Assembly (NCBI GenBank): GCA_004431415.1
Contig: QPMI01000144.1
Coordinates: forward strand, 10,325 to 74,324
DNA: 64,000 bases
Direction: 5' to 3'
Source of the DNA: Cyanophora paradoxa CCMP329
Taxonomy: Eukaryota; Plantae; Glaucophyta
Under the pieces are notes generated by a model. The model ran no database searches. It had not been told where the DNA came from and worked only from the letters and a program-made list of their open reading frames with translations. The position numbers were made by a program, and so were the translations under genes. Of this stretch, positions 25,122 to 53,707 are shown in pieces (within the stretch, counting starts at the first letter, position 1; each line of letters opens with the position of its first letter).

Positions 25122-25160
<39 letters not shown>

Positions 25161-29076: not shown

Positions 29077-29359
29077 TGTTGTAAAGGGGAGGACCCCCCC
29101 CCAAACCAGACCGCCCCCAAAGTCTGGTTTTACCTTCAGGGATCCACCCCTTCTAGCGTCATCAATTAGCGATTTTTCTGAGATCAGTTAGGCGTGTTAA
29201 TTAGGCGTGATGATGGACGAGCATGGATTTGAAGATTGGAAGGCGTGAGGGCGAGTGCATTTGGATCTGAGTAGAGAATATCGAGGGAGCTCTATCTAGG
29301 CGCTATCAGGGGCGACCTCCCAAGCGGTACGGGCCCCCAGAGCGGTCTGGTGCGGCCTC
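29077..29359 (+). repeat. Left terminal inverted repeat (283 bp)
   Basis: TGTTGTAAAGGGGAGG...GGTGCGGCCTC, exact reverse complement of 53415-53697 by manual comparison. Confidence 0.96.
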
Positions 29360-29558
29360 TGGAGATGAGAAACGTCGAGATTAATATGTACAGTACTAGT
29401 GGACCTATAGCTAACTGCTGAACGTAACTGCTCCTCACACAAATCAGAGTCATATATCAGAGTCAGAGTCAGAGTCTGAACTGTTCCTTACTGAGTCAGA
29501 GTCAGAGCCATAGAGTATTCTATAGCTAATCATTTGATAGCTATAGAATAATTCAAGA

Positions 29559-29813
29559 TCAATGCGCCACCGACATGGAGGGCAGTAATCTGATATATCG
29601 ATATATAGGTGTCAGAAAGCATTTCAGCAAAGAATGATATATAGTCATTATATAAGTAAACGCACATTTGTGGCGGTCGGGCACGTCCGCATCCTGTAGA
29701 GGACGAGAGTCTGCACACTCGCAGCAGCAGGGCATACAACCGGACTTGACAAGGGCGCATGCTGCCTTTTCGCCGTAACGGTGAATCTTGCGCGACGGCT
29801 CGCACACGTTCAT
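29559..29813 (-). CDS. Small Cys-rich protein, paralog of 29886..30134
   Basis: CEPSRK...CALVKSGCMPCCCECADS matches CEPSHK...CALVKYGCLPCCCECMDS. Confidence 0.4.
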   Translation of the reverse strand: MNVCEPSRKIHRYGEKAACALVKSGCMPCCCECADSRPLQDADVPDRHKCAFTYIMTIYHSLLKCFLTPIYRYIRLLPSMSVAH

Positions 29814-29885
29814 TCTTGCTTCGACGCGCCAGCGGCACGGAGGGCAGTAATCTGATAGATTTTATTAGGCAAGGCACAAATTGTA

Positions 29886-30134
29886 CTAAGTGTACGTAAT
29901 TGCACACGCACACATATGGTAGCGAGAAGGGATGCTAGAACGTATACTAGAATCCATGCACTCGCAACAGCAGGGCAAACAACCGTACTTTACAAGGGCG
30001 CATGTGGATTCGAAATTGAGCTTGTGGGACGGCTCGCACAGGAAGCTGGTAATGTGAAGGCAAATCTCTTCTGGAAACGGCAGAACCTCAGTCAACAGCT
30101 GTGCAACTTCTGTGACGGTTGCCGATCGCGACAT
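29886..30134 (-). CDS. Small Cys-rich protein with an F-box-like N-terminus
   Basis: LPFPEEICLHITSFL resembles the F-box pattern LPxEIxxxIxxYL; followed by PCCCEC. Confidence 0.45.
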   Translation of the reverse strand: MSRSATVTEVAQLLTEVLPFPEEICLHITSFLCEPSHKLNFESTCALVKYGCLPCCCECMDSSIRSSIPSRYHMCACAITYT

Positions 30135-30804
30135 GGCCCAGTGGTCTACTAGGCCCGGGCTAGCGCTAGTACGACTCTGTAGTAGAGTCTGTACGAGTAG
30201 GCTACGCCGCTACTAGGCTACTTACTACTACTAAGTTAGCCGCTAGTAGCCCGCTACTATAGTACGCCGCGACCGCGACTTGCCAAGTTGCCAAGTTGGC
30301 GAGTGTGATAGCTGAAAGCCGCTGAGCACGCCTTTTATACTACGGTTGTGTTTCTTTATTCAGAAAGAAAGATAATAATTGCAATTTGGCCGGCTTAAGA
30401 AGGTTCCATCAAGTTCTGCTACTTCATATAACAAAATTCGCATTTAACATAAAAGAATTAAATTCTGGGTCCCGAAGGTTCCAGCTGCCGAGTCAGACGT
30501 GGCAGCTTGCCATTGGCCAACGTGGCAGCTCGCCATTGGCCAACTTCAAGAATTGTGCAATTAGCAAAATGAGTTATATTCGTATTTGTTTGCGCCATGA
30601 TATTGAAAAACAGTACAATTGTAAGATTTGTCTATAGCAATTCTCAATTCTATTGCTGAAGTTCTAGCAATTCTCAATTCTCTACCTGCCAGGCTGTTGC
30701 TGCAACTTCAAATTTCAGGCTTGCTAGCATGCTGGCCTAGCTAGCGCCGCCGTCAAGGCCGACGTACTACTGTAGGCGTAGTTTTTTAGCCGTTGTAAAT
30801 AATT

Positions 30805-30944
30805 CGGCAATTTAGTATGACGGCAATTGCTTTGGGGGTAGGTAAATGCTCAGCCCGCCATAGAGCAGAAATCTGGATTCGGCAATTTAATACCACGGCA
30901 ATTCCGGTTTTGGACAAATTCGGCAATTTTACTACGCGGCAATT
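30805..30944 (+). promoter_or_regulatory. Three pairs of CGGCAATT direct repeats, candidate protein-binding sites
   Basis: Copies at 30805/30821, 30880/30896 and 30921/30937; each pair is 16 bp apart. Confidence 0.5.
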
Positions 30945-32132
30945 TAACTACGCCTAAAGTAGACTACTAGCTATAGCGCGGTACTAGCGCCGCTAGCTAT
31001 AGCGGCTAGCGTATTATAATTACATTTGTACATCAAGTCGAGCTGATGTTAATTTGATGCGGATCGGAGTCATGGGAAAGTTTGCAATTGACTCATTGAC
31101 TCAGTGATGGCTATCATAGTATTTGAAGCCGCCGCCGTCGACGTCAGTAGGCCTGCACCGCGCGCGACTCAGCTCGAGAGTCAGAGGCTCAGAGCTAGCG
31201 ACGCTCAGGCTACTAGGCTAACCCATTAATTAGTACAGCTAGCGCTAGCGCAGCGCCACGCACGTTTGATTTTGATAGCTTCCATTTCAACTTCTTCCTT
31301 CAGCTTGAGCACGCGACTGCAGATCGCGTCGAGATGTTGCATGCTACTATCGTGCTCTTGCTGGCTCTGCGCAAGCGCCGCGAGCGTTAGTGCATCGGAC
31401 TCGCCGACGCCAGCGCTAGTCGCGCTAGTCTATCTCCTCACCATATTGTGACTCTTGAGCTCGAGATCATGTCTGATTTGCCGCATTCCTGCAGCCATGC
31501 TGCTCAAATCCTCGAAAAGGGCCGCAAACATCTGCTCGCTAATTTCTGCTCGCATCGAAACTCGTATGTCGTCGAGGCGCCGGCGCTTGTTCGACATAGC
31601 GTTCTCAAGGCTGTGCTCGGTGTTGTTGGCCATTGGATTTGGGGTCTGTACGCTCGCAAAGCTTGCTGCGCACGCGTGTACTCTTCTTTTGCTAGCTCTA
31701 TTGCCTGCTCTGAGCGTCCGGATCCTGATTTATCTGCCCGGTCTAATCTGGCCTTCGCGTTTTTGCAGTCTTTCCTCAGCCGTGCCTTCTCCGGGTGCTC
31801 CGCCTTTTTCCACTTTGCAGTGCGCTCCTTTCCGGGGACTGGCGGCGGCCGCGGCGCTGCAAGGCGCTGGTGCCGGGCTGGACCGCTTACTAGTTTAACT
31901 GAGCTTGCCGGTGCCGCCAGCCTGGCCTAAGAGTCTAGGACTTCCCGGGCCGAAGCTTCGAGGTTTTCCACCGACTTTCTTTAATTGGCTGAAAAGAAAG
32001 AAAGAGAGAAAACACGAAAAAACGTGAAGAAACGAGAAACAGTCAAAAACCAATTGCAATTCGAAAAAAGTCACGAGTCTCAAAAAAACAACATATTGAA
32101 CGTGTACCGTCACTACCGTGACATCCGTATCC

Positions 32133-32330
32133 GACGTACGGCGGGTGTGACGGACGTACGGCGGGTGTGACGGACGTACGGCGGGTGTGACACTGTGACA
32201 GTCGACGTCAGGCCGCTAGTACTAGCCTAGTAGGCCCGCTACACCCGCTAGCGCTAGCGCTAACCTAGCCTAGTAGCTGGTACGGCTTGCGGACGTTCGG
32301 CGGTGTGACGGACGTACGGCGAGGGTGACG
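32133..32330. repeat. 20-bp tandem repeat containing GGTGTGAC
   Basis: GACGTACGGCGGGTGTGAC(G) x3 at 32133-32191 plus degenerate copies at ~32291-32330, next to an A-rich tract at ~31990-32100. Confidence 0.8.
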
Positions 32331-32493
32331 CGGGCGGTCTGCAGTGACACTGTGCAATCGGCTAGCACAGCAGTAGCGCTAGCGCTAGCGCTAGCTATAT
32401 ATATATAGGTCCTAGCAAGTCTTAGAGATAGCTTCACGATCTAGCGCTACAGCTCCGGCCGCGGATCGAGAGCGCCACAATCACTAAGCCAAG

Positions 32494-33162
32494 ATGCCGT
32501 CGCACAATCCAACAGCGTACCGGCGTGCTCTGAAAGAGGGGCTGAAGCATCTATGTTCGACGGCACTGGAGCGCCAAGTAATAAGCCAGCGCGATTATGC
32601 GTATTTTGAGCTATTTTTCAGCAGCAACTCGAGGAAAAGTCTTAACTCGATTAACATGTGCATACTATCAATTCACAGAATCATGCGCGACGCAAATCAG
32701 CAGTACGTGCAAATGATGGAGATAGCTGGGTCGTCCCCTGAGCAAGCTCAACTGCGGGCTGACATCGAACGGGCTTATCAACGAGTTGAAGAAGCTGATC
32801 TGACTGCGTTTTCCCTAGCGAGTATCAAAACGTTCTCGCACCAGGCTGATTCGATTTGCCCAATTCCAGATGTAGGCGTTGAGGATTCACAGTCTATCGC
32901 TAATGCGTCAGAGACAGCGAGCACCGTACTTGGCGAAGCCGAAGAGCCAGCTGCAGCGGAGGGCATAGCCAGCGCCGGCCAAGGCGAAAATGACGAGAAT
33001 AATAATTCAGCACCGGCTGATGCAGCTGCTGAGATCGAACAGGGCTCTGATCGTGAGGAGATCGACGCCACGCGTACGGCTCTAGATCTTGATCCAGTGG
33101 TTGATGGCTCCGTTCCAGGGGGCTTGGGGTTGGAGGGAGCGAAGTGGTCCGGCTATAGCTAG
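32494..33162 (+). CDS. Hypothetical viral protein with an acidic low-complexity C-terminus
   Basis: 222-aa ATG ORF directly upstream of and co-oriented with pPolB; may continue into 33089..33394 through a frameshift. Confidence 0.55.
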   Translation: MPSHNPTAYRRALKEGLKHLCSTALERQVISQRDYAYFELFFSSNSRKSLNSINMCILSIHRIMRDANQQYVQMMEIAGSSPEQAQLRADIERAYQRVEEADLTAFSLASIKTFSHQADSICPIPDVGVEDSQSIANASETASTVLGEAEEPAAAEGIASAGQGENDENNNSAPADAAAEIEQGSDREEIDATRTALDLDPVVDGSVPGGLGLEGAKWSGYS

Positions 33163-33526
33163 CGCTAGCACCGACGCCAGGCGAGCTCAGCAGCCTCGCC
33201 GGCAGTTGACAGCAGAGGAGCGCGCAGAGCGACTACTGAAGCGTAAGCGTAAGGCGCAGCACGAGCTCTGCCTAAAATTGAAAGCAGCTGGGGTTAGAGT
33301 GGCTGTGGTGGGAATCAGACGAGAAGATGGCGGCCACTATTTCACAGAGCTCGTCCGACTTCAGAGCAGTTTACAAGATGGTCACAAATCGTGAACACGA
33401 TCATGCTGGCCAGCCCTTGACCTCTCTTGCATGGCTTAGAGGTTTCCTGCATTCTATCTAGCAGTCAGAGATTGTTGCGCTGAAATCCGAAATTAATTTC
33501 AGTCCCTCTTCTTGGAAGCGCATGCA

Positions 33527-36500
33527 ATGGCCAGCACTGCAGCACTTAAGGCCGAACTTAGAAATTTAGCGACAGAACTTTATGATCGTGGATATGTTCA
33601 CGGGACATTTCGAAACAAACTGATGCGCCTAGCGGACGCTAGCAGCGGGACCTGGGGCCAAACGATTCGCAAATATATAGCGACACTGCTGCGACTGCGG
33701 AGCACGATTCGCCCAGCACGCCGCTTATATGAAGGCCAGCTCGCAGGCCATTTTGGCGCAATTGCAGCAGCTCGCGCAAACGCGGTTCAGGCCGAGGAGG
33801 CGATACTGGAGGACGTTCCTAATATATTTCAGGATGTTGAAGAAATTCCCGTGCCACAAGATCTGGATGGGGTGCTCTCTCACAGGCACCACCGCTATCC
33901 GAATTTACTATTCGATAAGCACGTATATGCAATCGAGCCCACCTACGATCCGGAGTCCGTAAAGAATTTAACTATCGACGTTCTGGGTCAACTGGGCATT
34001 GCAGAGATGATAGGGCGATTTGTGTTAATCCGGTTCCGCTTTGACAATAATCACATGTATACGACCCAGCTGATCCAAATAAGACAGAACGGGTTGCAGA
34101 GTTTGACTGAGAGTTTAGATGAGCGGATTGCGCAGTGGATGTCAGCACAAATGTCATATCAGGAGGACGATTTCTGGACGGTAACATCGATCGAGGTGTT
34201 AATTGCAGACAACGCGGCTGGCGCCCTAGGCAATGTTCCGAAATTGCCATTTTATCATAGGACAGTCGATAAGCTATACTGCCCGATGTCCCCAGCGAAT
34301 GACTGCGTGCTCGAATGCTTTGAGTACGTTAAATTAAATCCACGCGGACTGAGCCTGAAGACAGTAATCGAAAAGCTGGCAAAGGCACCCTATGCATCTA
34401 TTCGAGAGCGGCTCGGACTGGGAAAGGGCATGATATCTCTTGATCGCAGCACAGTAGAAGCAATCTGCGGATTTTATTCGATAGATACAACTGTGACGGA
34501 GTGGGCAAACACGAAATTCAAGGAGCTTTTTCGAACCCAGTTTGATTATTCGAAGCGTGCAATTCTCTGCAACATTGATGGGCATTGCTACCTGATTAAA
34601 AAGGAGGCGACACTAGGTCTGGAGCGGTGCCCTTGCTGCGGAAAGATGTTTGATTTGGCAACGCATGTGGAGCAATGCACGTTCTGCAATAACTGCAAAC
34701 GCGCGTACGACCCCAGAAAAGATCATTCATCAGAGTGCCAGGAGATGACGCGCCGTCAAAACGTGATCGGGCGGCAAATCAAGCCCTGCAAACCGGAGAC
34801 AGAATTTACAGCGTTGGACAGCGTTGTCTGCGCGGATTTTGAAACGTTTGCTGCCAACGGCAAGACGCACGTTCCATATGCTGTCAGCTATTGCACGATT
34901 GAAAAAGGGGAGGTCTCGCCATGCGAGTTAATTTATGGTGAGCAAACGTTGGACTTGTTCATGCGCTGGCTTGAGCGCCGCAGCGAAAAGACGACGTTGG
35001 TGTTCTACAATGGGTCTGGCTTTGACTATATATTTGTCTACAAATGGCTCGTGTTAAATCGACCGAATACAGCATTAAACGTTCTGCGGTCGAACGGCAA
35101 GATCAAGAATATGTCGTGGAAAACGGCTGCAGGCGGGCCTATAAGTACGTTTGATCCGTGCCTGCACATCCAGGCTTCGCTCAAACAGGCCTGCAAGGAC
35201 TACGGCTGCACTAACGTAAAGGGAGATTTTGATCATAGCAAGATTAAAACGTGGGAGGACGTTGAGCGCTTTAAATCTGAATGGGAGCCGTACGTGGAAG
35301 ACGACGTTAAGGCAATGACAGAGCTTTACATTAAATATTCGACAGCAGTCTTCGATCTGTACGGCTTAAACGTGAACACAACGCAAACAACCACAGCTTC
35401 GGCAATGGCGTTCCAGATTCATCGGCAGACGTTGATCAATCCAATTTCGCTACCGACCTACAAGGATGATCAGGTGCTGCGCCAGGCAATATATGGTGGA
35501 CGGTGTCTCCCATTTAAACGCAAATTCGTCTCATCGGGCCCGGATGATTATTTAGTCGACCTGGATGTTGTAAGCTTGTATCCGACGGCTATGTACGAGA
35601 ATTGGTTTCCAACTGGAAAGTACAAGCATATTACGTCGCCCGATGCGCTGGACAGATTCTGCAAGATATTACAATCGAATCAGCGTTCGTTGATGTTTAT
35701 TGCGTGCGTGGACGTGACAATTCCGCAAAATCTGCTGCTCTCTCCGCTGCCACGGCACGAATCTAATCTAGGCTGGTCTAATCTCAAGCCAATTGAGCGC
35801 GGTTGGTATACGTCAGTCGATATTAATCGTGCAATTAAACTGGGATGCGAGGTGACGAAGGTGCGCGAGGTCTACCTGTTTGACGGTAAAGATCAGATGT
35901 TTAAGACCTACATGGAGCGGATGTACTGCCAGAAAGCTAGATCTCGCAAGGGAACAGCTCCGTATGCGACGTCAAAGATTTACATGAATGGCCTTTACGG
36001 TAAATATTGCCAGCGGCCTGTGATCACAACCTCGGATCTGGTCACATCATACAAGCGATTTCGAGAAATTCAGCGATCAGCGCAGATCACAGACATTTCG
36101 ATCGAATCAGACACGCGGATGTTTGTCACGTACGAGATTGAGGAGTCCAAGCGTGATAGAGCTGTCACTAAACCGTGCTTTATTGGCGCATTTATTCTGT
36201 CATATTCGCGGGAGATCATGGACAGGTTTCTGATTGAAATAGGCGCATACTGGAGCATCGATGCAATGCCGTTTTATACTGATACGGACTCTTTGATTGT
36301 CCATCGAAAATACGCTGATCTGCTGCGGGCAAAAGGTTATATGAAGCCAGCATATGATATAGCGACGGCAACAGATGCGGACATTTGCAGGCAGGAACTA
36401 GGGAAACTTGACTGTGACATTAAAGGGCGGATTGTGGAAGCGTACTTCATTGGGCCGAAGCTTTATACGTGTTCATTTGTACGTGACAGCGACGCGCAGC

Positions 36501-36852
36501 TTGATCTGCATGTACGCGCAAAGGGGATTCCGCAATCGTGGATCCAGGAGCACTGGCTACCAGACGAACCAGAGGCGAGGAAAGGGGCCCTCGACCGCAG
36601 GATCGCTCTGGATGCTTACAGGTGCATGCTCGAGGATCCCACGTACCAACCCAAATGCACAATCGAATCAAAGCTGGCCCGTGTTTATAAACCGAACGGG
36701 CGGCAACGGAGAGCGGAATCAGCTTTAGTTCCATGATCCAAATTCCGTTCGCTCGACAGCTGAACAAGTCGCAGTATACAAAGCGCAAGATAATTTCGGA
36801 CGAATACTATAGTAGCGTCCCCCATGAGTACCGCGCAGGCGAGCCGAATTAA
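33527..36852 (+). CDS. polB: Protein-primed family B DNA polymerase (pPolB); frameshift near 36700
   Basis: ExoI ADFET, ExoII FYNGSGFD, ExoIII YVEDDV, DVVSLYP, KIYMNGLYGK and YTDTDS. The shifted frame supplies the expected tail YTKRKII...SSVPHEY, ending TAA at 36852. Confidence 0.95.
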
Positions 36853-38010
36853 GCAAGCTTATTACGATCCGGAAACTGGCTTTCAGTCTGCGGCGAGGAT
36901 AGCTAAGCGGCTCAATTTACCGCTATCAAGAGTGCAGGACGTACTTTCAAAATTGACGACTGCGCAGCGTTTTGCGAAACCTGTAAAGGAAAAGCCATCG
37001 ACCAGCATAATTTACGGGGAGCCCGAAAAGTACTACGAAGTCGATCTGATTGATGTGACCCGTACGCGAGAACTAATCGAGGGATTACTTTTATTATGAA
37101 CGGTATCGATGTGACGACGCGCAAAGCGTATAGCATCCCTATGAAGACGAAATCGGAAAGCACTCTGCTAGCCAGTTTGAAGAAATTGATTGATGCACTC
37201 CCCTCGAAGCCGGACGTCATTCAGACAGATCAGGAGTTCAAAGGAACCGCAGCAACAATGCTAGCGAGTATGGGCATCAAGCATAATGCAGTGGAGGCGC
37301 ATCGCCCGCAAGCAAACGGCAAAATAGAGAGATTTAATGGTACGCTTAAGCGCATCATTGCAAAGTACATGGATGCGTACGACACGGACAGATATATCGA
37401 TAAGCTGCCTGCTTTCTTGCGCAATTATAATTCGTCAGAGCATAGGTCAATTGGTACGTCGCCGAACGCTGCAGCAGAAAATCCGAAGGAGACAATTGCA
37501 CGCAACGACTACCAGAGAGAAGCGTACGAGCAACAGCACTATTTTGCCCAAGCGGAATTTAAGGTAGGCGATCGGGTGCGAGTGCAGCTAGAGCGGCAGC
37601 GTTTCGACAAGTCTTCAAAGCCGACGTATTCAAAAGAAATCTACACGATCACGGAGATAGGTGGCTTTGGGCCGCTGCTCAAATTTACGCTTTCGGGCTA
37701 CGACAAAGCGGTGACCTACCAGCGACTATTGAAAGTAGCGGCAGATTCAGAGGAACGTCGTGCGGGCAATGCAGCACAGCGGGCACAGCAGCGCAGGAAG
37801 AAAGAGATTAATCTAATGCAAGAGAATCTAGACAAGAGTGATATAGAGAGAGCGCGCAAACTCGAGCGTTTGCAGAAGCAATTGTTGACTGCAGGTAAAG
37901 AGAAGCTGAACCCAGGAGGGGCAACACAGAGATGGTATTCGTCGTTCCAGAATAAAACTGCAGCGTACTCAGCCCCTGGCAATACGCGAACTCTCCGCCC
38001 ACGCGCGTGA
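36824..38010 (+). CDS. int: Retroviral-like (rve/DDE) integrase of Polinton type; frameshift near 37060
   Basis: YYDP N-terminus, EVDLID, QTDQEF, NGKIERFNGTLK, YNSSEHRSIGTSP and FKVGDRVRV. ORFs 36824..37099 and 37096..38010 join with a one-base correction. Confidence 0.92.
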
Positions 38011-38076
38011 AAAAGAAAGGGAGCCATCTTGGCTTCCTCCTTCTTTCGCTCCCCTCTTTTTACTAATTGCCGGCCA

Positions 38077-38352
38077 TTAGAGAGCTATAACAATTGTTTG
38101 TTGGAGGGACTCTAGCAGAGCTAACTTTTCGTAGATTCGATTGCGATAGCGGCGATTGGCCTCCAGATGGCCCTCACTGTTATTGCGTTGATATTTCAAA
38201 CTGGCTTCGATGTGACGTCGCCGGTAATCAGGATCTTCATTGTACCTGCGCCGATGGCTCTCCGCTCGCTTGGCCTTCCGTGCCGCAGCGATTTCAGGGG
38301 TGACAACAATTGGCTTGCGGCCTGGGCGCTTTGGCGATGATTCGGCATCCAT
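38077..38352 (-). CDS. Small basic protein, possibly DNA-binding
   Basis: KRPGRKP (AT-hook-like) followed by an Arg/Tyr-rich helix. Confidence 0.5.
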   Translation of the reverse strand: MDAESSPKRPGRKPIVVTPEIAAARKAKRAESHRRRYNEDPDYRRRHIEASLKYQRNNSEGHLEANRRYRNRIYEKLALLESLQQTIVIAL

Positions 38353-38463
38353 ATTTGCGGGTTTCTCGTCACAAACAAGGAGCGAAATAATTTTATGGCA
38401 TCAATCGCAGAACGACCAACTGCGTTGGATTTCGAGAATTAAATCCGAGATATAATTAAAACA

Positions 38464-39339: not shown

Positions 39340-39348
39340 CTTTTTCTC

Positions 39349-40092: not shown

Positions 40093-40154
40093 CAAAAAAT
40101 TAACTACCGAGATTCGCAGGCGCAGCCAAGGCAGCTTGTCTGACGACACTTCGA

Positions 40155-41543: not shown

Positions 41544-41587
41544 CGAAGTATATAATTGCAGTGAAAGAAAATAATTTGGGACTTAGC

Positions 41588-42544: not shown

Positions 42545-42571
42545 CTTTTTTATATCAGTTAGAGAATAAAA

Positions 42572-43461: not shown

Positions 43462-44937
43462 GTAACGTCCCCGGAAATCAAGCCGGAACGCATTCACATT
43501 TATAAATTCGTTTGTTATAATTTGCACATAGTTATAAACCTGTGGGGTGATCAAATGCGAGTCACTATGCATTAGATCAAAGCCTGTCATAGATGGGTTT
43601 GCAGCAAGCACATTTGCTAGGACCGTATTCTCAAATAGTGACCCGTCTCGTAAATATCCTAAGTTGGTCAGAATGCTGAAATTAAATAGGACTCCGGCAG
43701 CAAAGGCTGGCCCATACATAATGATTTGATGTAGCTCAAAAGGCTTTGGAAATTCGACTCTGATCCAGGGATTAGGTAGAGTGCCACCTTGGAACCCTGT
43801 TGAGTTGGGTCGCACATGAGAAGGTGGGTGCAATTCCTCAAAGTCGTTGCTTATGATGTTTGCATCTGGAATTATAAACCAGTTTACATCAAATGGCGGC
43901 TCAACTGTTAAAGTAGACGATATGATTAGTCTCTCATCGTTCAGTAGGTCGTAGTTCGCCAATAGAAAGCTGCAGAGTGCATTTATTTTAGCATTTATTT
44001 CGATTTGTTTCAGCCATAAATCTGTTGTGGAAATCAAATAAGAAATATTCGATGGGGAGGCATCATCAAGCTTGCTCATGACTGCAGCTGGCAGCGGAAC
44101 ACTTAAACGCCAGTATCTAGTTAGATTCCTATCTGCATCAACTGGAAGCAGTTCCTGCATTTGAAAGTGCGATTCCAGCTCGCTACCTGACATTAGCATA
44201 GAAATGATTGGGCTGCCTGAGAGGGATAGGATCCAGCCCAGAGCGCCCCAGCCTGACGTCTCCGAATTCGAAAAGCCTGCAGTCAATTGCTCACTGGCTT
44301 GGACCTCACCACAGCTAATGCTCACAAGAACAATTGGATCTTCTGCATCGTAAATTTTACTGGCGTGGCTGAGTGCAGCAACTGAGGGATTATTCAAACA
44401 GGCTATCGCCCCGTCAACAAGGTTTTTGTCCCCTAGAACCTTCGGTGGAAAGAATGTAGGCGCTGCAGAAGATGCTCTCACTGCATCACGAATCAGCGTG
44501 CTTGAATATGGCCCATCCTTCGTAAAAACTACTGGCTGCATCCGAACTGTATCAAACGCTGTAATTAATACGTCTTTTGTCGATTCTGCAATTGTGTAGT
44601 CCAGGGCAACGTCTGTAAGCACCGACTCCAGAGGATTTGCATCATAGCGGCTTCCTGAGAGCAAGCTTGTCAGTGATCTTGGATTTGCAAATATTGTTGG
44701 CAGGTTCGTTTGATATAGACTCAAGATATCACCTGCAGAATATCGGTAAGCAAGAACAGAGCCTGGAGTTGATGGGATCGCCAATCCGGCCGCTATTATT
44801 GCCCCTGTTGAGGTGCCTGCAAAGAAATCAAACAGCTGTGGTATTGCTTTCCCAGTAATCGCCTCAATCCGCTGTAGAATTCGGGCTATGACTATTCCAC
44901 GAGCACCTCCACCTGATAGTGAGAGAATGACCTTCAT
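43453..44937 (-). CDS. Patatin-like phospholipase with a C-terminal extension
   Basis: SGGGARG oxyanion loop, GTSTG nucleophile, ASSAAPTFF and DGA catalytic Asp. Likely start MKVIL at 44937. Confidence 0.92.
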   Translation of the reverse strand: MKVILSLSGGGARGIVIARILQRIEAITGKAIPQLFDFFAGTSTGAIIAAGLAIPSTPGSVLAYRYSAGDILSLYQTNLPTIFANPRSLTSLLSGSRYDANPLESVLTDVALDYTIAESTKDVLITAFDTVRMQPVVFTKDGPYSSTLIRDAVRASSAAPTFFPPKVLGDKNLVDGAIACLNNPSVAALSHASKIYDAEDPIVLVSISCGEVQASEQLTAGFSNSETSGWGALGWILSLSGSPIISMLMSGSELESHFQMQELLPVDADRNLTRYWRLSVPLPAAVMSKLDDASPSNISYLISTTDLWLKQIEINAKINALCSFLLANYDLLNDERLIISSTLTVEPPFDVNWFIIPDANIISNDFEELHPPSHVRPNSTGFQGGTLPNPWIRVEFPKPFELHQIIMYGPAFAAGVLFNFSILTNLGYLRDGSLFENTVLANVLAANPSMTGFDLMHSDSHLITPQVYNYVQIITNEFINVNAFRLDFRGRYLN

Positions 44938-45052
44938 TTTTAAAAGGGGGCTTATATAAAAATGTCCTACATCTTGAAGAAGCCAGTGCCACTTCGTAAA
45001 GCTCCAGATTTTGTGGATGATCGGCATATAAATATTCGCGTATTTGGGAGTA

Positions 45053-45571
45053 CTACTGCTGGAAATTCAGCTGCAGGAATTGCTTATCAGCCTCTAAAGT
45101 GTGCACAATAGCAAATGCATCACGAGCACGAGCAGCAGCCTCGGCTGTGTGGAAATAACCTATGTGCTTCTTTTTACCATCTACATTAAAATAAGCTCGC
45201 CATTTACTACTTGATCTATCAAAGTTGACTCCAATAAATCCTGATGAATTGTTAGATTGGCGGTATCGATTCAAAATTTGCTGGCGCCTAGATGCAACTC
45301 GCAAATTTTCACGTCGATTGTCGAGGGGATTATGGTTGATGTGATCGACAGATAGGCCTTCTTCGATATTTGGAAAGAGAAACACTTGAAGTTTAATTGT
45401 TGTATACTTCCCGTTTACTTTTATGTTAGCCTGAGCATAGCCATTATTATCCAAGTGCCATTTCTTCTGAAGAACTCGTTCGGTATCTTCGTGAGACACA
45501 AGGGTATATGCACGAATGTTTCCTCGACGATCACGGAGTGGAACCGCCATTGCACCAACAGGAATGTCCAT
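45053..45571 (-). CDS. HNH-AP2 homing-endonuclease-like protein
   Basis: VDHINHNPLDNRRENLR (HNH) plus SGFIGV...KWRAY...HIGYFHTAEAAARARD (AP2). Confidence 0.9.
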   Translation of the reverse strand: MDIPVGAMAVPLRDRRGNIRAYTLVSHEDTERVLQKKWHLDNNGYAQANIKVNGKYTTIKLQVFLFPNIEEGLSVDHINHNPLDNRRENLRVASRRQQILNRYRQSNNSSGFIGVNFDRSSSKWRAYFNVDGKKKHIGYFHTAEAAARARDAFAIVHTLEADKQFLQLNFQQ

Positions 45572-45679
45572 TTCGATTCCAGCTTACTTAAGCTTGGCTT
45601 CTTTACAGTTAGAACCCGACATCTCTTTATAGCATATCAAAGTCTTGATCTGCATTCTTTTATCGAACCATCTACTATC

Positions 45680-48600
45680 ATGTCTTATCTCCTGAGAAAG
45701 CCTGTGCCTCTGCGACGGCCACCAGAATCGCCTGAAGAGGATAGGCTCATTAATATTCGCGTTTTCGGAAGCATTTTGGCTGACTACAATGCTGACAAAG
45801 ATATACACCAGACCGAGTTTAATCGCCCAGCTGCGTTAATTCTGCGCAACTCACATGTTGGCGCCCCGGACATTGCACAGAGATTTTGTCTAGGTCCAGC
45901 TGAGAACTATGTTGCTGAAATAATTGGATCCAGGGCGTTGCCGCGGCACCTGCGAATTGCCTCCTCAGGCACTGTTTCCAAGTATGATTCTGGTAGATTA
46001 ATCTTTAGGCTCCAAAATGATAGAGGGGTCCACACATCAGCTCTACGCCTAATTGATGAATCCAATGCTGTCACAAACAAGACTGCGGCTCACATTACAG
46101 GGCGAATTCTCCTTGGCGAAGATGCAGGAATATCAGTGCTAGCATCACAAATCCAGCCGTTTCCCTGGGATTTACTTTTTACAGCTGCACGAGAAGCAAA
46201 TATTTTATACGGTTTTGATGTAAATCAAATCGATACCGAGCCAGCCACCAGGTTAGATATTCCTGGATGCACCTTTGGCTCGATCCTGATGGAAGCTGAT
46301 AGGCACCTGCTCCCGGCGTTGCATGACAGCTACGATCTTGGGCTCCGCACCAGGCAGTGGCGAAATATTCACGGCACGTCGATTTACCAAGATGGAAAAA
46401 GGTCATCACTGAACCGGAGATAATAAACATTTTCAACTACTACTTCGGACCTATTGTCCCTATACCACCTATACCACCTCTTCCAGGGCTACCGAAGCCA
46501 AACCCTGAAGGGCCAGGTCGTGAGAGAGTTGCAGATGAAACAATTCCATTCGGGCAAAATATTATTTCGTGGGAGGCTGTCAGGAATCGCCCCGTGATAG
46601 AACGCTATAAGCATCCGCATGAAGAATACCTGCCGCCTGATATTGAAGTTTTCCCGCTCGAAATGTACACAGAGCCTGAAGAGCAGTTACTTCCTGATGG
46701 CTTAGATGTTCAAGAACTCCAGTACGAGCAACCTGTGATTCCACATGAGCAGCTGCTTCCAGACGGCTTTGAACCTATTCTCTTCCCTTGGAGTTCACCG
46801 TAGATTGGGAATCAATAACCAATAAACCTGGGAGTTTTCCACCAGAGGAACACAGGCATGATTGGGATGAAATCGATAATAAACCGTTGCGGTTTCCCCC
46901 AGAGGATCACAGACATGATTGGGCTGAGATCGATAATAAGCCTTTACGGTTCCCCCCAGAGGATCATAGACACGACTGGGGTGACCTTGATAATGTTCCG
47001 CTTGAATTTCCACCGGAAGATCACAGACACATTTGGAGCGAAATAGATGAGCAGCCCGAGTTCGCAAAGATTGAGCTTCCTGTCACACTAGCTGTCTCTC
47101 TCTACAAATCAATTAACACCCCTGAAAGGTTATATTTGAATGACCACTATGTCCACAGGCAGGGAATTCGTGCTAACACTGACATGTCAGGCTCTTTGTT
47201 TGTAAGGATTCCCCGTGGAATGGAGATAGTTGCTGCTGGCGGGAATATTGGTTTGCAGGACACGTTCCCAAGTATTTATGTCACAAACTACTACGCCTCT
47301 GACATCGAAATGACATCTGTTCTACCTTTTTTGCCTTCACTGCCGTTGGATCCTCTCTCCCATGCTGATTTTCATTCTGCAATCCAGATTAATGTAACAG
47401 ATGTTAGCGATTTAGATTCATCGAGACCGAAATTAGTTTTTAGCCGTGAACGCCTTTTACCCAATGCTCTGATAGGAAATCGAGATGATTATAAGAAATG
47501 CGAAATAGCATGGATAAAAACGAACTATAACGGTGGAGTTGGGGAGGGCATTTTAGAAATTAATCAGAGGGCAGCAGCAAAAAACATTCACAACGAGACT
47601 ATATCCAGAGTGGTCACAGAGGATTACCTTCAAGCCCAAAATTATGTAGATGAAACAGAGCTCGCTTTAGTTATTGCAGGTCTAGCTGTGACAGGGAATT
47701 ACCTGCCCTTGACAGGAGGAACTATTGACGGAACAGTGACTGCTGACAACTTTTTTGTTCACACTGAAAGTGATCAGACCTTCCCTGTGGTTCACCCAGG
47801 AGCTGAGTACGAGATTCCTATTGATCCTGCTATTATGCCCATAAAAATCGATCTCCCTTCCGATTATGTTGGACGGGGTGAACTGAAAATAATCTCTTTC
47901 ACAGGAGATTATAATGATCTTTTAAACAAGCCTACTGCTGAGAACCTTCACCCTGTTGCCTATTCAGGAAATTTCCTCCATTTAAATAATAGGGCACACA
48001 CCCACACAAAGGCTGAGATCACAGATTTTGCACACACTCACACGAAGTCCCAAATAACAGATTTTGCACACACCCATACCCGAGCAGATATAACTAATTT
48101 CGCTCACACCCATGTTAAATCAGAGATAACTGATCTTGGGAATGTTGCTTATGTTGGTCATACCCATACCAAGGCAGAGATTACAGACCTGGGAAATGTA
48201 TCGTACGTTGGTCATACCCATGATTGGAATACTGATATCTATAACAAACCGGCGTTGTTCTCAGGCAACTACAACGATCTGACCAATAGACCCACTCTTG
48301 ATCCCTTCACAGCCACCACTATCAGAGCCAATAATACAATGTATGTAGGATCAGGTCAGATTGTAGAACCAGCAGGGCCTATGTTTGAAGAAACATGGTT
48401 CTTCCACAATTCGCAGAATTACTTTGATAAAACCTTACTTGTTCGTGGAAATGCCTATGCAAGAAATTTCTATGCTATGAACCCCTCAAATAATGCGACC
48501 ATCAGTCGATGTATTACAGAGGCAGATCTTTCCAGTCAACTCAATGCATATTTTAATGGGAAAATTCAAGCAGGGAAGTATGTTTACACTACTCCCGTTT

Positions 48601-48854
48601 TAGATTACAATAATCTCTATGTGTTCAATCTAACTATCTATTTTACCAATGCCTTTGCTTCTCCTCCTGTTGTGACAGCAACAGTAAGGCATGAAGGACA
48701 AGATCCAAATTATCAATTAACTCCCGTCGTTTTTACTGTGAACCTGTTGAATGTTTATAGTAACTATTTTACTTGTGAACTTTTCACTGATCCATATGCA
48801 ATGATTAATTCATCCAAAACTGTTACAATTCATTACATTGCTGTCGCAATTTAA
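45680..48854 (+). CDS. Long phage-like tail-fibre protein (three ORFs joined over frameshifts near 46398 and 46787)
   Basis: Four HRH(D/I)W.(E/D)(I/L)D..P..F repeats, six HTH...I repeats (HTHTKAEITDFA type), GxYNDLxNxP twice, YLPLTGGTIDG, and a C-terminal FTNAFASPPVVTAT (H-type lectin/gp53-like). Joining the three ORFs is an inference. Confidence 0.75.
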
Positions 48855-48873
48855 CTGTTTGGTAATTATAAAG

Positions 48874-49875
48874 ATGACATCTGTATTAGAAATCCCGAAT
48901 TATGAATTAGCAGCCAAATCACTGCATAGCACCTCTCATGAAGTAGTTGATTCTACACCTGGGAATATCTGCACCGAAACAGCAAGCAATACCTCCTTAA
49001 CCGAAACCAATATTTTGAGAGTCAAAGAAATACGCTGTGACCGAAATGGAGGCAAGATACGAACTACAGGTATTATTATTTCGAATAAAAATCAGGTTCA
49101 AGCAGGTCAAGTAGTCCCTGATTCAGCAGTTTATGATAACGTGGGTGGATTCACCACGGCAAAGATCGTAACTTTCGATAACACAAGCAATAACTCCGCT
49201 CTTGTGGTTAAGAGTGGTGGAGCCTATATTGGTGACGGAGCGATTGTAGTGGGGACTGTCACAGCAAATCAATTAAACGTGAGTGGTACATGCATTTTCA
49301 GTTCTTTGATGACTTTTAACTATGGCCTTTTAGGTAACATAATTTATGGGACTCTTCAGGCATTTCTGAGAGTTCAAGCACCCGAAATTGGTAGTGGAAC
49401 AGATTCCAACATGAGCTACAAACGAAATGGTAATGCAATTGTCACTCTTGAAAAAACGACGGTAGCAGAGATAGAGATAAACTCATTCACACTTTCCCCA
49501 ACTTGCTATTTGAAAAGGACTTATTGCCCAAGATTTTGTGTCACAAAACTATTACCTAATCAGGCAGCATCATCCTCATCATGGTCATCTGGCGTCCGTA
49601 TTACCTTCACAGTTCCTAATTTCGCTACTTATTATGTCAACAATGAAGGCAACTGGAATGATTCGTATATATTTACTGCACCTGTTGCAGGTGTTTACCG
49701 GGTTTTTTTCACAGCTCTCAGAATAGATACTCAGACTTCTTATGTGACTATCTTAAAGCTTTCAATAAATGGAATTGCATCCGATTACGAATTTCAATGT
49801 TCATTAACGGGACAAATGGCTATCACATACGAAACTTTACTTACTCTTAACATGGGGACAATGTTGGAGTATTAA
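48874..49875 (+). CDS. Fibre paralog 1 with a C1q-like head
   Basis: Shared N-module (PG.ICTE...KEIRCDRNGGK.RTT) and FTAPVAGVY. The true C-terminus probably extends to ~49945 past a G-run frameshift. Confidence 0.7.
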   Translation: MTSVLEIPNYELAAKSLHSTSHEVVDSTPGNICTETASNTSLTETNILRVKEIRCDRNGGKIRTTGIIISNKNQVQAGQVVPDSAVYDNVGGFTTAKIVTFDNTSNNSALVVKSGGAYIGDGAIVVGTVTANQLNVSGTCIFSSLMTFNYGLLGNIIYGTLQAFLRVQAPEIGSGTDSNMSYKRNGNAIVTLEKTTVAEIEINSFTLSPTCYLKRTYCPRFCVTKLLPNQAASSSSWSSGVRITFTVPNFATYYVNNEGNWNDSYIFTAPVAGVYRVFFTALRIDTQTSYVTILKLSINGIASDYEFQCSLTGQMAITYETLLTLNMGTMLEY

Positions 49876-49967
49876 ACTCAACAGGTGTTACCATCACTAT
49901 TAGCACACGCTGTTACTTGGGTGCTATCTCGTAAGTGCTATATAATATTGTCTGTGTAATATAAAGA

Positions 49968-50993
49968 ATGGCTACTCAAATAGCAGTCCCTGTTTTCTGT
50001 TACGCTGCACCGAAAATTCATCAACTCAACCACACTGTAACAGATGCAACTCCGGGTTTTATTTGCACAGAAACAACAGGAGCAGATTCATTTTCGCAGA
50101 ACTCTTTGATTCGATGCAAGGAAATCCGGTGTGATCGCAATGGGGGCAAAGTGAGAACCACAGGTCTCATCGTTTCGAACAAGAACCAAGTTCAATCAGG
50201 ACAGATCGTTTCTGATTCCGCAATCTATGATGATGTGGGAGGGTTCACCACACCCAAGATTGTTACGTTTGATAACACAAGTAATAATTCTGCTCTTGTC
50301 GTGAAAAGTGGAGGTGCTTACATCGGAGATGGTGCGAGGATTGATGGAAACCTTACAGCTGAGCAACTCACAGTAACAGGAACGACTACTTTTAATAACT
50401 TAGTAACAGCTAATGGTGGTGTGTATGTCCCTGGTGCTCAGCAGTCTATTGTGACAGCAACTACCAAAATTGTTACACCCGAAGTAGATACAGGTTCGAG
50501 CTCAAATCTTCTCTTGAAACGCAATAGTAATCTCATGGCGACACTGGAAGCCAATAGTCTCACTCTAAATACAGGTTGTTACTTCAAGTACGATTTTCAA
50601 CCTCGATTCTGCGCACAACTTGGTTACACACATGTTGCTTCAAGTGCTGCTCCTCTGATCAACTGGACAACAGTTTTTATAGACAACAGAGGTGCCTTCA
50701 ATACAGGCAATGGAAGATATACAGCTCCTGTTGCAGGACATTACAGATTAACTGTAAATTCTTCCTCAACATCTTCAACAGCTGTAAGTCTGACTTTGCA
50801 GGTAAACGATACTAACCCTGGTGGTCTGACCATCTTCACATCTGGAACTTCAACTACAATTGCAGCGAAACCTCTATATATCAACGTTATACTCAATCTT
50901 GCTGCCGGAGAATATGTCACAATTGTCACAGGAACAGCTGGTAGTTATGCAAGTCGAACAACATTTACAGCTGAACTTCTAAGTATCACATAA
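49968..50993 (+). CDS. Fibre paralog 2 with a C1q-like head
   Basis: Same N-module; FNTGNGRYTAPVAGHY...LNLAAGEYV is a C1q/TNF-like signature. Confidence 0.78.
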   Translation: MATQIAVPVFCYAAPKIHQLNHTVTDATPGFICTETTGADSFSQNSLIRCKEIRCDRNGGKVRTTGLIVSNKNQVQSGQIVSDSAIYDDVGGFTTPKIVTFDNTSNNSALVVKSGGAYIGDGARIDGNLTAEQLTVTGTTTFNNLVTANGGVYVPGAQQSIVTATTKIVTPEVDTGSSSNLLLKRNSNLMATLEANSLTLNTGCYFKYDFQPRFCAQLGYTHVASSAAPLINWTTVFIDNRGAFNTGNGRYTAPVAGHYRLTVNSSSTSSTAVSLTLQVNDTNPGGLTIFTSGTSTTIAAKPLYINVILNLAAGEYVTIVTGTAGSYASRTTFTAELLSIT

Positions 50994-51015
50994 ATTTTCT
51001 CTCTATAATGTAGGA

Positions 51016-51282
51016 ATGTCGAATATCTACCAAGTGGTTCTCTCAGATACTGAGAAGTTGGGAATGGAATATTGTGCTGCTTCTGTTCAGGATTGGATTG
51101 ATAATGTCGTTCATAACAGGGCAAGAATTGCAATTGATGAGATTGTTCAGAAAGAAATTCAATCTTGCATCTCATCAGGAGTTCAAATACCAACCTCAAA
51201 GGAAGCCATTGTGTCACAGGCATTCCAAAGGGGAACTGTAAAGAAAGGCATCGAGTATAATAATGTCACAGAAGAGCAGTGA
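51016..51282 (+). CDS. Small phage-like tail-fibre-associated protein
   Basis: LSDTE...MEY.A..VQDWIDNVVHNRARIAIDEI resembles small proteins I recall next to fibre genes in aquatic tailed phages; from memory, not a search. Confidence 0.55.
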   Translation: MSNIYQVVLSDTEKLGMEYCAASVQDWIDNVVHNRARIAIDEIVQKEIQSCISSGVQIPTSKEAIVSQAFQRGTVKKGIEYNNVTEEQ

Positions 51283-51330
51283 AGCTATAGCTTGTCTGCA
51301 GCCTATTTTTTTCTCTCGCATTTCTATCAA

Positions 51331-52178
51331 ATGACCGAGTACAATCGGGTTCAGCTACCTATCTACTCACTGGGCTCCCCAGCCATCCATATGAGGCAGC
51401 ATGAAGTTAGCGATGCTATTGCGGATTAGAGTCCACTGAGCGTCCAAACTCAACTAATGCATTTGATCAACGATCTGTGATTCGGTGTAAAGAATTGCGC
51501 GCAGATAAAAACTCTGGGGTTGTAAAAACAACGCGATTATTAGTCACTAATGCAAATTTTTCCCAGCCCATAACAGGGGGAGTTGATTCGTACAGTGTTG
51601 ACCTCCGAAGCATAAACTATGATCAAAACACTGCTGCCCTCACTGTGCGCTCCGGGGGAGCAGCTATTACTGGAGCTTGCCGTGTTAGTGGAGGACTATC
51701 ATCATCGATTGCCATCAATGATGTTCCAGACTTTTCATTAGAGAATGTCGAAAATCGTAAACGAGTTCGAATGTACTTACCTTGCTGTGACCTCCCCTAT
51801 GCACAAGCTCTAGTAGAAGTTGAGATAACCATAGCAAATTCAAGTACACCAAATGGTCTGGATGGTGAGAGGTTGCTTTCAAACAGAGAAATACCGAAGG
51901 CACTTCAATCACTCTGTCAGGATCAAAATGATCAGATAGGGCATGTGTATACGTTCTTTGTGCAAGGTCTTGGGCATGCTGGCCGGGGATACGTAGTTCG
52001 TAATATCAATACAAGGCATCTTTTCGATTTATATGCTACCGCTATAGGCAGATATTCTATCCTAATAATCGGATATCGCTCCGATGTAGCTGCATCAGCG
52101 GCCACTAGAGGACTGAACCCTGATCCAGCACTCAATAATATGTATGAGGAGAACAATCCAGAAAATCCTATAGCTTGA
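51331..52178 (+). CDS. Fibre paralog 3 (frameshift near 51423)
   Basis: ATG 51331 MTEYNRVQLP...QHEVSD joins GLESTE...IRCKELRADKNSGVVKTT; parallels 52207..53040. Confidence 0.68.
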
Positions 52179-52206
52179 GTGAAAGTTTTATCTTCTGTTT
52201 TCTAAA

Positions 52207-53040
52207 ATGGAAGCTGTTGAAAGAATTGTTGTTCCCTCTTTGACACTAGCAGCCCCAGCAAATCACGTCCTCCAGCATGCTGTCTCAGACGACGTGCCTG
52301 GTCTGCAATCAACTGAGCAGCAGCCAACTCTAAATACCTTCCGGGAGAATCACATATTACGTTTAGGCGAGGTTCGATGCGACAAAAATAATGGGACAAT
52401 AAAAACAACAAGTCTCCTTGTAACCAATGCAAACTTTAATTCAAATTATGGGGATCCTGATAGCTATGACGATGCTAATAAGGTCAATACTTTTACCTTT
52501 GAATCAAGAACAGGTGCCGTCACCTGCAGATTTGGAGGTGCTTATATTGGCGATGGTCTGAGAGTAGGCGGCGCTGCTTGTGCTCCTATATTTGTTAATG
52601 ATCAACCTAACCCTGAAAACACAAATGAAAGAATTCGAACCTATGTGCCTTCTATGAATTCGCCTTACATTATTAAACTATTCACCCTAAACATAAATGA
52701 GCAAACATCGATTGTAGATAACGTTCAGCCACTCGGAAATCATTTCAAGAGTGTTGTTGATATTCCCCCGGATGTCTACTTCCTTTGTAGAAGGAATGAT
52801 GCTCTCCGGCCAAACATAGCTGTTTTGATCAATCCTATCGATAATTTTGGTGTCGCTTTCCATTCGACTCCAGTTGGGGTTGAAGATTACCAGTTTATTG
52901 TGAGGGCCACGCTAATGGGTGCCTACAAAATTATTCTATTTGCTGAAAGAACAGATGTGATTGCAAGCGGGGTCAAGTATGGTGAGACCTTCAATTCGAA
53001 TCGTTACTTTCCAATTGGAGGGGCTGATCCCAACCCATAG
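52207..53040 (+). CDS. Fibre paralog 4
   Basis: QHAVSDDVPGLQSTE...GEVRCDKNNGTIKTT...GGAYIGDG N-module with a non-C1q C-terminus. Confidence 0.72.
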   Translation: MEAVERIVVPSLTLAAPANHVLQHAVSDDVPGLQSTEQQPTLNTFRENHILRLGEVRCDKNNGTIKTTSLLVTNANFNSNYGDPDSYDDANKVNTFTFESRTGAVTCRFGGAYIGDGLRVGGAACAPIFVNDQPNPENTNERIRTYVPSMNSPYIIKLFTLNINEQTSIVDNVQPLGNHFKSVVDIPPDVYFLCRRNDALRPNIAVLINPIDNFGVAFHSTPVGVEDYQFIVRATLMGAYKIILFAERTDVIASGVKYGETFNSNRYFPIGGADPNP

Positions 53041-53073
53041 AATCTTTGTTTTTATATATATTACCCCTTGTAG

Positions 53074-53478
53074 ATGGATCTGCTCCGTAAATGCATGGAC
53101 ATGTTCCATCTCAACGTCACCAGCAAATTGAAATGCAGTTGCTGCGAGACAACTATCAACCTCGAAATATCTGACACTGAGGGCTCACGCACCCCTGATA
53201 CTCAGCTATCGCCTAATAACACACCCGGACTTCTAGGTCCAATTCTCCTTTTACGCGATCTGATTCACCTATACCATGGCTTGATTCTGAAAGCCGAAGA
53301 TCGTCTTGGCCACCCCAAATATCCCGAAGCCCCTGAAAAGAAAGAAGTCCTTGCTATCAAGTTTCAGAAAGGAGAAGACTCCAGTTGCCGAAAAGCAACC
53401 AGATCAAGTGGAATGAGGCCGCACCAGACCGCTCTGGGGGCCCGTACCGCTTGGGAGGTCGCCCCTGATAGCGCCTAG
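53074..53478 (+). CDS. Small hypothetical viral protein with a CSCC motif
   Basis: ATG ORF after the fibre cassette; as assembled it runs into the right TIR, so the end is doubtful. Confidence 0.4.
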   Translation: MDLLRKCMDMFHLNVTSKLKCSCCETTINLEISDTEGSRTPDTQLSPNNTPGLLGPILLLRDLIHLYHGLILKAEDRLGHPKYPEAPEKKEVLAIKFQKGEDSSCRKATRSSGMRPHQTALGARTAWEVAPDSA

Positions 53479-53697
53479 ATAGAGCTCCCTCGATATTCTC
53501 TACTCAGATCCAAATGCACTCGCCCTCACGCCTTCCAATCTTCAAATCCATGCTCGTCCATCATCACGCCTAATTAACACGCCTAACTGATCTCAGAAAA
53601 ATCGCTAATTGATGACGCTAGAAGGGGTGGATCCCTGAAGGTAAAACCAGACTTTGGGGGCGGTCTGGTTTGGGGGGGGGTCCTCCCCTTTACAACA
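53415..53697 (-). repeat. Right terminal inverted repeat (283 bp)
   Basis: Reverse complement of 29077-29359; followed by GTCTAC. Confidence 0.96.
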
Positions 53698-53707
53698 GTC
53701 TACGCAC

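Follow-up and report, generated by a model that had tools for sequence, protein, structure and literature searches.

A probably young and intact Polinton-like provirus in GC-rich DNA of Cyanophora paradoxa

The stretch of DNA analyzed here (64,000 nucleotides of Cyanophora paradoxa CCMP329; assembly GCA_004431415.1, contig QPMI01000144.1, positions 10,325 to 74,324 of the forward strand; hereafter the window) carries an element of 24,621 bp, which we read, with a probability of roughly 80%, as the complete genome of a Polinton-like virus (PLV) lying in a GC-rich chromosome of a likely Cyanophora-type glaucophyte, with predicted replication by a protein-primed DNA polymerase of family B (pPolB), a double-jelly-roll (DJR) capsid, and re-integration by an rve integrase. 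The provirus is young and probably intact, and it is a further member of a glaucophyte-specific capsid lineage which, as far as the published tables and texts cited below extend, has been catalogued but thinly described. A first-pass annotation, made from the letters of the window, had proposed a complete, young integrated virus of a possibly undescribed lineage; the Polinton-type replication and integration module, the capsid gene, and the large fiber cassette that it listed all stand, while the undescribed lineage does not.

The element is bounded by two terminal inverted repeats (TIRs), which are complementary at 283 of 283 positions, and by the hexamer GTCTAC, present directly outside both ends as a target-site duplication (TSD; Table 1), in agreement with the earlier annotation. 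A perfect inverted repeat of 283 nt cannot have a chance origin, and the odds of a matching flanking hexamer by chance are 1/4096. Reading of both ends also confirmed the termini, TGTTG...CAACA (i.e., TG...CA). These had been called unusual, but are ordinary for an element with this type of enzyme, given that retroviral-type integrases process CA-3′ ends; animal Polintons, in contrast, have AG... terminal dinucleotides. The GC content of the element is 46.6%, compared with 69.7% in the flanks (8000-28000 and 56650-64000), where values locally reach 83%.

Public read data provide an additional view of these boundaries. Twenty public DNA runs of one organism contain 65-70% of the words sampled from positions 36500-46499, and four runs presumed to be RNA contain next to none of them. 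Contigs of four DNA runs (2012, 2019, and two from 2024) were compared with the window over positions 34200-54199, and in all four a contig of ∼2.6 kb begins at position 53671 and continues past the end of the TIR and the TSD to reach the flank, with 0 differences. Because the same junction recurs without a difference in runs spanning 2012-2024, the right junction is real and stable.

A total of 38 ORFs (open reading frames; 23 + 15) were profiled with Pfam (E ≤ 0.01-0.05), and PHROGs and NCBIfam were searched as well. The pPolB, the rve integrase, and the genome-packaging ATPase named at first pass are each supported by both Pfam and PHROG profiles. The nearest relative of the pPolB is 36% identical, and a search of the PDB by sequence returned no match for it. 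The integrase core aligns with residues 139-255 of the prototype foamy virus (PFV) integrase (E 2.9e-5). As assembled, the integrase occupies two frames, with the break at a CCC run (37059-37061); by arithmetic, restoration of one extra C yields a single ORF of 395 aa. Furthermore, when the PFV alignment is extended by an ungapped offset, the upstream frame contains the first catalytic Asp, and the two frames are therefore one gene. Neither a protease family nor a helicase family was found by Pfam in the 38 ORFs, and a protease is likewise absent from the PHROG and NCBIfam matches, as the first-pass annotation had remarked for an adenain-like maturation protease and a helicase; a very divergent protease could still reside in one of the unassigned ORFs.

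The major capsid protein (MCP) has no Pfam family match, and its assignment comes from a predicted structure. The AlphaFold model, built with a five-row alignment (predicted local distance difference test, pLDDT, 64; predicted template-modeling score, pTM, 0.71; the single-sequence model has a pLDDT of 33.7), has 198 PDB matches at E ≤ 0.001, the best of which are the MCP of Singapore grouper iridovirus (SGIV; E 1.4e-19, template-modeling score, TM, 0.60) and Vp54 of Paramecium bursaria chlorella virus 1 (PBCV-1; E 7.6e-17). In a fold search of BFVD, the top named matches are capsids of nucleocytoplasmic large DNA viruses (NCLDV); a virophage first appears at rank 37, and rank 45 is an adintovirus protein. 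An embedding search of the MCP points the same way, as a lead, and a search of PDB sequences with the MCP family profile gave nothing meaningful (best E 0.24). On the strength of the predicted model, a DJR protein, of the NCLDV-like type proposed at first pass, is confirmed. Of the two pentons proposed alongside it, the first has an embedding lead to viral minor-capsid clusters (nearest clusters viral at 0.98, with a Sputnik V18/19 cluster at 0.97), and the second is placed by position and by its conserved partner in a second element in the window, described below. The two candidates have no mutual similarity by BLASTP.

The patatin-like phospholipase and the fiber cassette were likewise recovered by profiles, although the entry and attachment genes make up ∼35% of the genome by coordinate sum, and not the ∼40% first estimated. 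The patatin domain is nearest to bacterial effector phospholipases of the cyclic-oligonucleotide-based anti-phage signaling system (CBASS; PADLOC PDLC00758, E 1.2e-51; NCBIfam CBASS_lipase, where 144 bits fall below the cut-off of 200), and the protein has an additional C-terminal domain of ∼175 aa with no family match. The likeness to a CBASS defense system extends to the lipase domain but not to its partner: no CD-NTase cyclase was found beside the CapV-type phospholipase in any ORF scanned. These features suggest a bacterial-type lipase that may have been taken over by the virus. In the fiber cassette, alignment of the four short-fiber paralogs reveals a common N-terminal module of ∼100 residues and unlike heads.

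The HNH-AP2 endonuclease gene is a separate selfish passenger. In contigs of all four runs, position 45054 is joined to position 45781, such that 726 bases are skipped and five other letters stand between. In one run this joined form is ∼7 times deeper than the contig bearing the HNH gene (1498 vs. 209), and most related copies are therefore without the HNH-AP2 segment. Such presence and absence is what a homing endonuclease that spreads from copy to copy would be expected to leave. The same skip also takes the first 34 codons of the long-fiber ORF as called, and the start of the fiber gene is uncertain for this reason.

From these gene families we infer a life cycle, in which each step is a prediction from sequence. 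The integrase would cut the CA-3′ ends and insert the linear genome by a 6-bp staggered cut, while the pPolB would copy the genome by strand displacement after protein priming at the TIR ends. The A32 ATPase would load the genome into capsids assembled from trimers of the MCP together with penton-like proteins at the vertices. The long repeat fiber and the four short fibers with exchangeable heads (two of them C1q/TNF-like) may bind the algal surface, and the patatin phospholipase, with its extra C-terminal domain, may open a membrane during entry or egress.

The family clearly has multiple copies, among them several near-identical sisters. Contigs that match the interior exactly are 1.7 to 8 times as deep as the junction contig (a rough ratio), and the depth summed over related contigs reaches tens of times that of the junction contig. 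The search for other copies advised at first pass thus finds them both in contig depth and within the window itself, where a second, diverged element with the same gene order is cut by the left edge (Table 1). By eye, the MCP of this second element resembles another of the C. paradoxa MCPs that Bellas et al. (2023; PMC10120064) list in their Table S2. At the end of the second element, GC content jumps from ∼31% to 61%. Just beyond, a 29-residue reading, LKNEFKSRVNRDREAIEMNEGFKFVFQYV (5172-5265), equals the start of a C. paradoxa gene model in the same table, where that start precedes an MCP of the other cluster; the reading probably belongs to a repeat bordering PLV insertions. Together with the base composition and the relatives of the element described below, this string points to a Cyanophora-type glaucophyte as the likely host. 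It is abutted by a GC-rich ORF of 762 aa (5242-7530, minus strand) with no Pfam family.

Table 1. Features of the PLV element, its boundaries, and the second element, in positions of the window.
Feature	Position	Strand	Basis or remark
Left TSD copy, GTCTAC	29071-29076		directly outside left TIR
Left TIR, 283 bp, starts TGTTGTAAAG	29077-29359		283/283 complementary to right TIR
Two small paralogous Cys-rich ORFs	29559-29813, 29886-30134	-	common CALVK.GC.PCCCEC motif, by eye; adjoin left TIR
Gene-poor left arm	30135-32493		without ORF of known family; short tandem repeats
Acidic ORF	32494-33162	+	no family
Basic ORF	33104-33394	+	no family
pPolB, 1069 aa	33527-36736	+	PF03175 E 2.1e-50, 172 bits (cut-off 25.8), residues 485-903; phrog_1907 E 2.8e-44
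rve integrase	36824-38010	+	rve_3 E 1.4e-8, 34.8 bits (cut-off 26.5); PHROG support
Small basic ORF	38077-38352	-	no family
Small ORF	38464-38820	+	ExoX-like_C 25.9 bits, just below cut-off
Small ORF	38548-39339	-	no family
A32/FtsK-HerA-type genome-packaging ATPase	39349-40092	-	PF04665 E 2.4e-9, 37.5 bits (cut-off 22.8); phrog_2666 E 1.2e-13
Predicted DJR MCP, 462 aa	40155-41543	-	predicted model and fold search
Penton-like minor capsid candidate 1, 318 aa	41588-42544	-	embedding lead; kept beside MCP in second element
Penton-like candidate 2, two frames	42572-43461	+	position and conserved partner in second element
Patatin-like phospholipase, CapV-like catalytic domain at residues ∼34-350	43453-45027	-	PF01734 E 8.1e-26
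Free-standing HNH-AP2 homing-type endonuclease	45053-45571	-	HNH_3 E 4e-10 and AP2-like domain; PHROG support
Long fiber, phage-tail-like repeats, three frames as assembled	45680-48854	+	PF12789 (PTR) E 2e-6; PHROG support
Short fiber 1	48874-49875	+	paralog alignment
Short fiber 2, C1q-like head	49968-50993	+	C1q E 9.8e-6; paralog alignment
Small ORF among short fibers	51016-51282	+	position
Short fiber 3, N-terminus in another frame	51331-52178	+	paralog alignment
Short fiber 4	52207-53040	+	paralog alignment
ORF extending into right TIR	53074-53478	+	no family assigned
Right TIR, 283 bp, finishes CTTTACAACA	53415-53697		283/283 complementary to left TIR
Right TSD copy, GTCTAC	53698-53703		directly outside right TIR
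Second, diverged element, cut by left edge of window	1-5170		same gene order
Second element, ATPase fragment	2-160		gene order
Second element, MCP	232-1656	-	55% identity (257/465) to main MCP
Second element, penton-like 1	1672-2666	-	frame break about 2100
Second element, penton-like 2	2683-3626	+	frame break about 3240

As assembled, the element has five frame breaks: one in the integrase, one in penton-like 2 (G5 run at 43022-43026), two in the long fiber (near 46398 at an A5 run and near 46784 at a CCC run), and one in short fiber 3. Arithmetic on the ORF coordinates indicates that these five and the two in the second element are all -1 shifts, with one base too few, and five of the seven sit at runs of 3-5 identical bases. 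The contigs of the four runs, in which the depth at a break is a sum over many related copies, contain extra bases at four of the five breaks in the main element. In the integrase, an extra C behind position 37058 accounts for 100% of the depth in all four runs, and we conclude that the assembly is in error at this break. In the long fiber, 50-100% of the depth has an extra C behind 46784, and in short fiber 3 ∼60% has an extra T behind 51422, while several one-base insertions occur at 43021-43026 in penton-like 2, each in part of the depth. Because extra bases are present in contigs derived from reads, the remaining breaks are most likely assembly errors as well, and the capacity for reactivation is, for the same reason, more likely than the raw sequence suggests. 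One-base deficits that lie mostly at short homopolymers point to systematic deletion errors in the assembly.

The penton-like 2 gene of the second element is split in the same direction as that of the main element, and a conserved intron or programmed frameshift was considered for this reason. It was ruled out, as the two breaks fall at different places in the protein alignment: the main element breaks ahead of 'AGIPVTP', and the second does so behind 'AGVPITPNHP'. An intron-like stretch in the second element (GTGAGT...TTTTGCAG, 100 bases at 3115-3214) is out of frame, and the sequence within it stays homologous in the upstream frame; it is read as chance.

Several observations weigh against a complete and intact virus. 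Both penton identities are putative and held tentatively. At 43021-43026, 46784, and 51422 the extra base is found in only part of the multi-copy depth, and this particular copy could be truly broken there; additionally, the fiber break near 46398 is not among the indels listed from the contigs. The left arm (29360-32490) is without an ORF of any known family, and decay is possible in this region. Finally, searches of IMG/VR and of JGI metagenome contigs returned no MCP relative, and there is thus no sign of free particles.

Some of these observations would also suit an intragenomic, self-synthesizing transposon of the Maverick style, which no longer makes infectious particles and whose capsid and fiber genes are passengers or have some other function, for example defense against a giant virus. 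The family is multi-copy within one organism, and its MCP is without relatives in the viral and metagenome contig collections named above; the patatin domain is closest to phospholipases of a bacterial defense system, and PLVs have been proposed as an antiviral defense in the abstract of Bulzu et al. (2025; PMC12220804). We nevertheless consider a transposon of this kind unlikely. A diversified fiber cassette, in which four paralogs combine a common base with different heads, takes up about a third of the genome. Such a pattern is expected under selection for binding cells from outside, and the whole morphogenetic module is open. A role in defense is further disfavored by the missing cyclase partner for a CBASS-type lipase in the ORFs scanned.

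A dead and decaying endogenous relic, in which the frame breaks reflect genuine mutations and the left arm represents coding sequence that has degraded, is less plausible, and we judge it quite improbable. It would account for the five breaks as assembled, for ∼3 kb of left arm without a recognizable gene, and for that part of the depth at 43021-43026, 46784, and 51422 which agrees with the window. However, the TIRs are identical over their full length and the TSD is intact, and no contig in the four runs supports the window's version at 37058. The single-base deficits at all seven breaks, five of them at 3-5-base runs, are the error pattern of long-read assembly and not that of random mutation, and the pPolB (1069 aa), MCP, ATPase, and patatin genes are open over their full length.

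The lineage of the element was addressed through its MCP and through the published record. A single match to the MCP, P0093, came from a word-indexed library of 5.8 billion clusters (65% identical, with 100% coverage). Searching the same library with a profile returned two proteins, both already rows of the query alignment, and no new relative. An exhaustive HMMER search of 1.84 billion representatives found eight proteins at E ≤ 0.001, three of them at E ≤ 1e-10, and cluster look-ups supplied no names for the distant relatives of the MCP or of the pPolB. P0093 has a EukProt name, on contig tig00020904, and its 456-aa sequence agrees, as far as the table cell shows, with the corresponding entry that Bellas et al. 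(2023; PMC10120064) give in Table S2. The entry is an MCP of C. paradoxa CCMP329 with an iridovirus MCP (probability 98.47) as its best HHpred hit, and the same table prints three related MCPs from C. paradoxa. Table S4 of the same study gives 366 C. paradoxa MCP hits (3.66 per Mbp) in two 'new' clusters, which by column count are cluster 21 (272 hits) and cluster 29 (94 hits), and estimates that the elements occupy 7.32 Mbp, or 7.3% of the C. paradoxa assembly. Under the clustering rule in the legend of that table (at least 25% identity over at least 30% of length), the MCP described here clusters with P0093. The identity of 65% between the two MCPs means that the element of P0093 is distinct from the present one.

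The gene content of such elements is tabulated by Bulzu et al. (2025; PMC12220804), whose Table S6 contains 156 elements from Glaucocystophyceae. Among these, PF04665 (A32 ATPase) is recorded in 139, lipases in 89, rve in 85, PF03175 (pPolB) in 49, and HNH_3 in 40, while each of nine protease models is recorded in none, and the standard PLV MCP model of that study detects two of the 156. The accompanying text describes C. paradoxa PLV fibers with PTR repeats, as well as glaucophyte PLV discoidin domains that occur singly, paired, or fused to a patatin phospholipase, and its section 9 describes a reduced morphogenetic module, without a maturation protease, as typical of Aquintoviricetes. The missing protease, which the first-pass annotation had regarded as unusual, is thus typical of these PLVs. 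Earlier still, adintovirus-like PolB and integrase were noted in C. paradoxa contigs (Starrett et al., 2021; PMC8502044). In essence, and to the extent that these tables and texts describe it, the element falls within an already described clade with the same gene content, the outcome that the first-pass annotation had named as refuting its proposal.

That the element represents an undescribed lineage of integrating protist viruses, apart from the described PLV, Maverick, and virophage groups, is accordingly very unlikely. In favor of such a lineage, the MCP lacks a Pfam family and has only the eight relatives given above, and no sequence found exceeds 36% identity to the pPolB. Searching IMG/VR with the pPolB led to 76 loci (polymerase at most 31% identical), which have none of the other 22 element proteins in common with the element except for one weak ATPase match. 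The standard PLV model finds only two of the 156 glaucophyte elements, and the main text of Bellas et al. (2023) never mentions Cyanophora. Against it, P0093 with its three related MCPs and the 366 hits are in print, the gene content of the 156 elements is tabulated, with patatin and PTR fibers in the text, and the PolB and integrase were noted in 2021.

Comparison with known systems places the element closest to PLVs. It has in common with the C. paradoxa CCMP329 PLV-type elements, as they are tabulated, the A32 ATPase, pPolB, rve, lipase, HNH_3, PTR fibers, the lack of a protease, and a low GC content in a very GC-rich host. Similar to the Aquintoviricetes PLVs, as described in the sources above, it combines a size within 14-40 kb with TIRs, a predicted DJR MCP, a minor capsid candidate, an A32 ATPase, and no maturation protease; it differs from them in having a Polinton-type pPolB and rve integrase rather than a primase-helicase, and standard MCP models for PLVs miss nearly all tabulated glaucophyte MCPs. 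With Polintons/Mavericks and adintoviruses it has in common the pPolB, rve integrase, long TIRs, 6-bp TSD, DJR capsid gene, and A32 ATPase, but no adenain/Ulp1-like protease was found in the 38 ORFs, and the fiber cassette is large. Because of the lack of a maturation protease, we group the element with the reduced-module, Aquintoviricetes-like PLVs and not with Polintons/Mavericks proper. Virophages of the Mavirus type are likewise small integrating dsDNA viruses with a pPolB, an rve integrase, TIRs, and a short TSD; in contrast to them, the MCP of the element ranks NCLDV capsids ahead of any virophage, and no protease was found. The resemblance to Nucleocytoviricota (SGIV MCP and PBCV-1 Vp54) is in the double-jelly-roll fold of the model (TM 0.57-0.68, E 1e-19 to 1e-15), whereas capsid identity is only 8-13%, the genome is 24.6 kb, and no NCLDV core gene besides the A32-type ATPase is present.

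The remaining features of the element and its surroundings are less distinctive. One of the two Cys-rich ORFs has a weak F-box-like match (E 0.03, under the cut-off). The left arm contains three perfect 20-bp tandem repeats (32133-32191) and a related 19-bp pair, all within 32133-32330, which may be regulatory or protein-binding sites. When the flanks are joined in silico, no large ORF is found to have been broken by the insertion, and no tRNA or Rfam family was found in the window. The element is surrounded by a patch of intermediate GC content (∼4 kb, 45-62% GC; 28000-29076 and 53704-56650) within DNA of 70-83% GC. This patch, which may be a relic of an older mobile element, includes an ORF on the minus strand (53893-54669) whose right-handed beta-helix match lies about at the Pfam cut-off.

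Beyond the reading of this copy as a complete PLV genome, the glaucophyte elements may constitute a currently active group of viruses, at the rank of family or above, with this copy as an inducible provirus, although we regard this as a tentative possibility that is less likely to be true than not. The suggested rank follows from the failure of standard PLV models to detect the tabulated capsids (2/156) and from the few relatives outside Cyanophora (eight in 1.84 billion); inducibility rests on the identical TIRs, the near-identical sisters, and frames that close once assembly errors are removed. Every break examined here is a one-base deficit, and gene decay or pseudogenes in this assembly are therefore suspect until it has been polished. 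In the published sources cited here, the C. paradoxa elements are in print only as rows of supplementary tables. The exact boundaries, the full gene map, and the evidence for artefactual breaks make this copy a good start for asking whether such elements still make particles. We know of no virus isolated from a glaucophyte (no search was made for one). If the proposal of an active family is true, these elements would provide the first tractable virus-host system for glaucophytes, and this copy would carry both a homing endonuclease that is apparently spreading and a CBASS-type phospholipase that has apparently been re-used as a virion enzyme.

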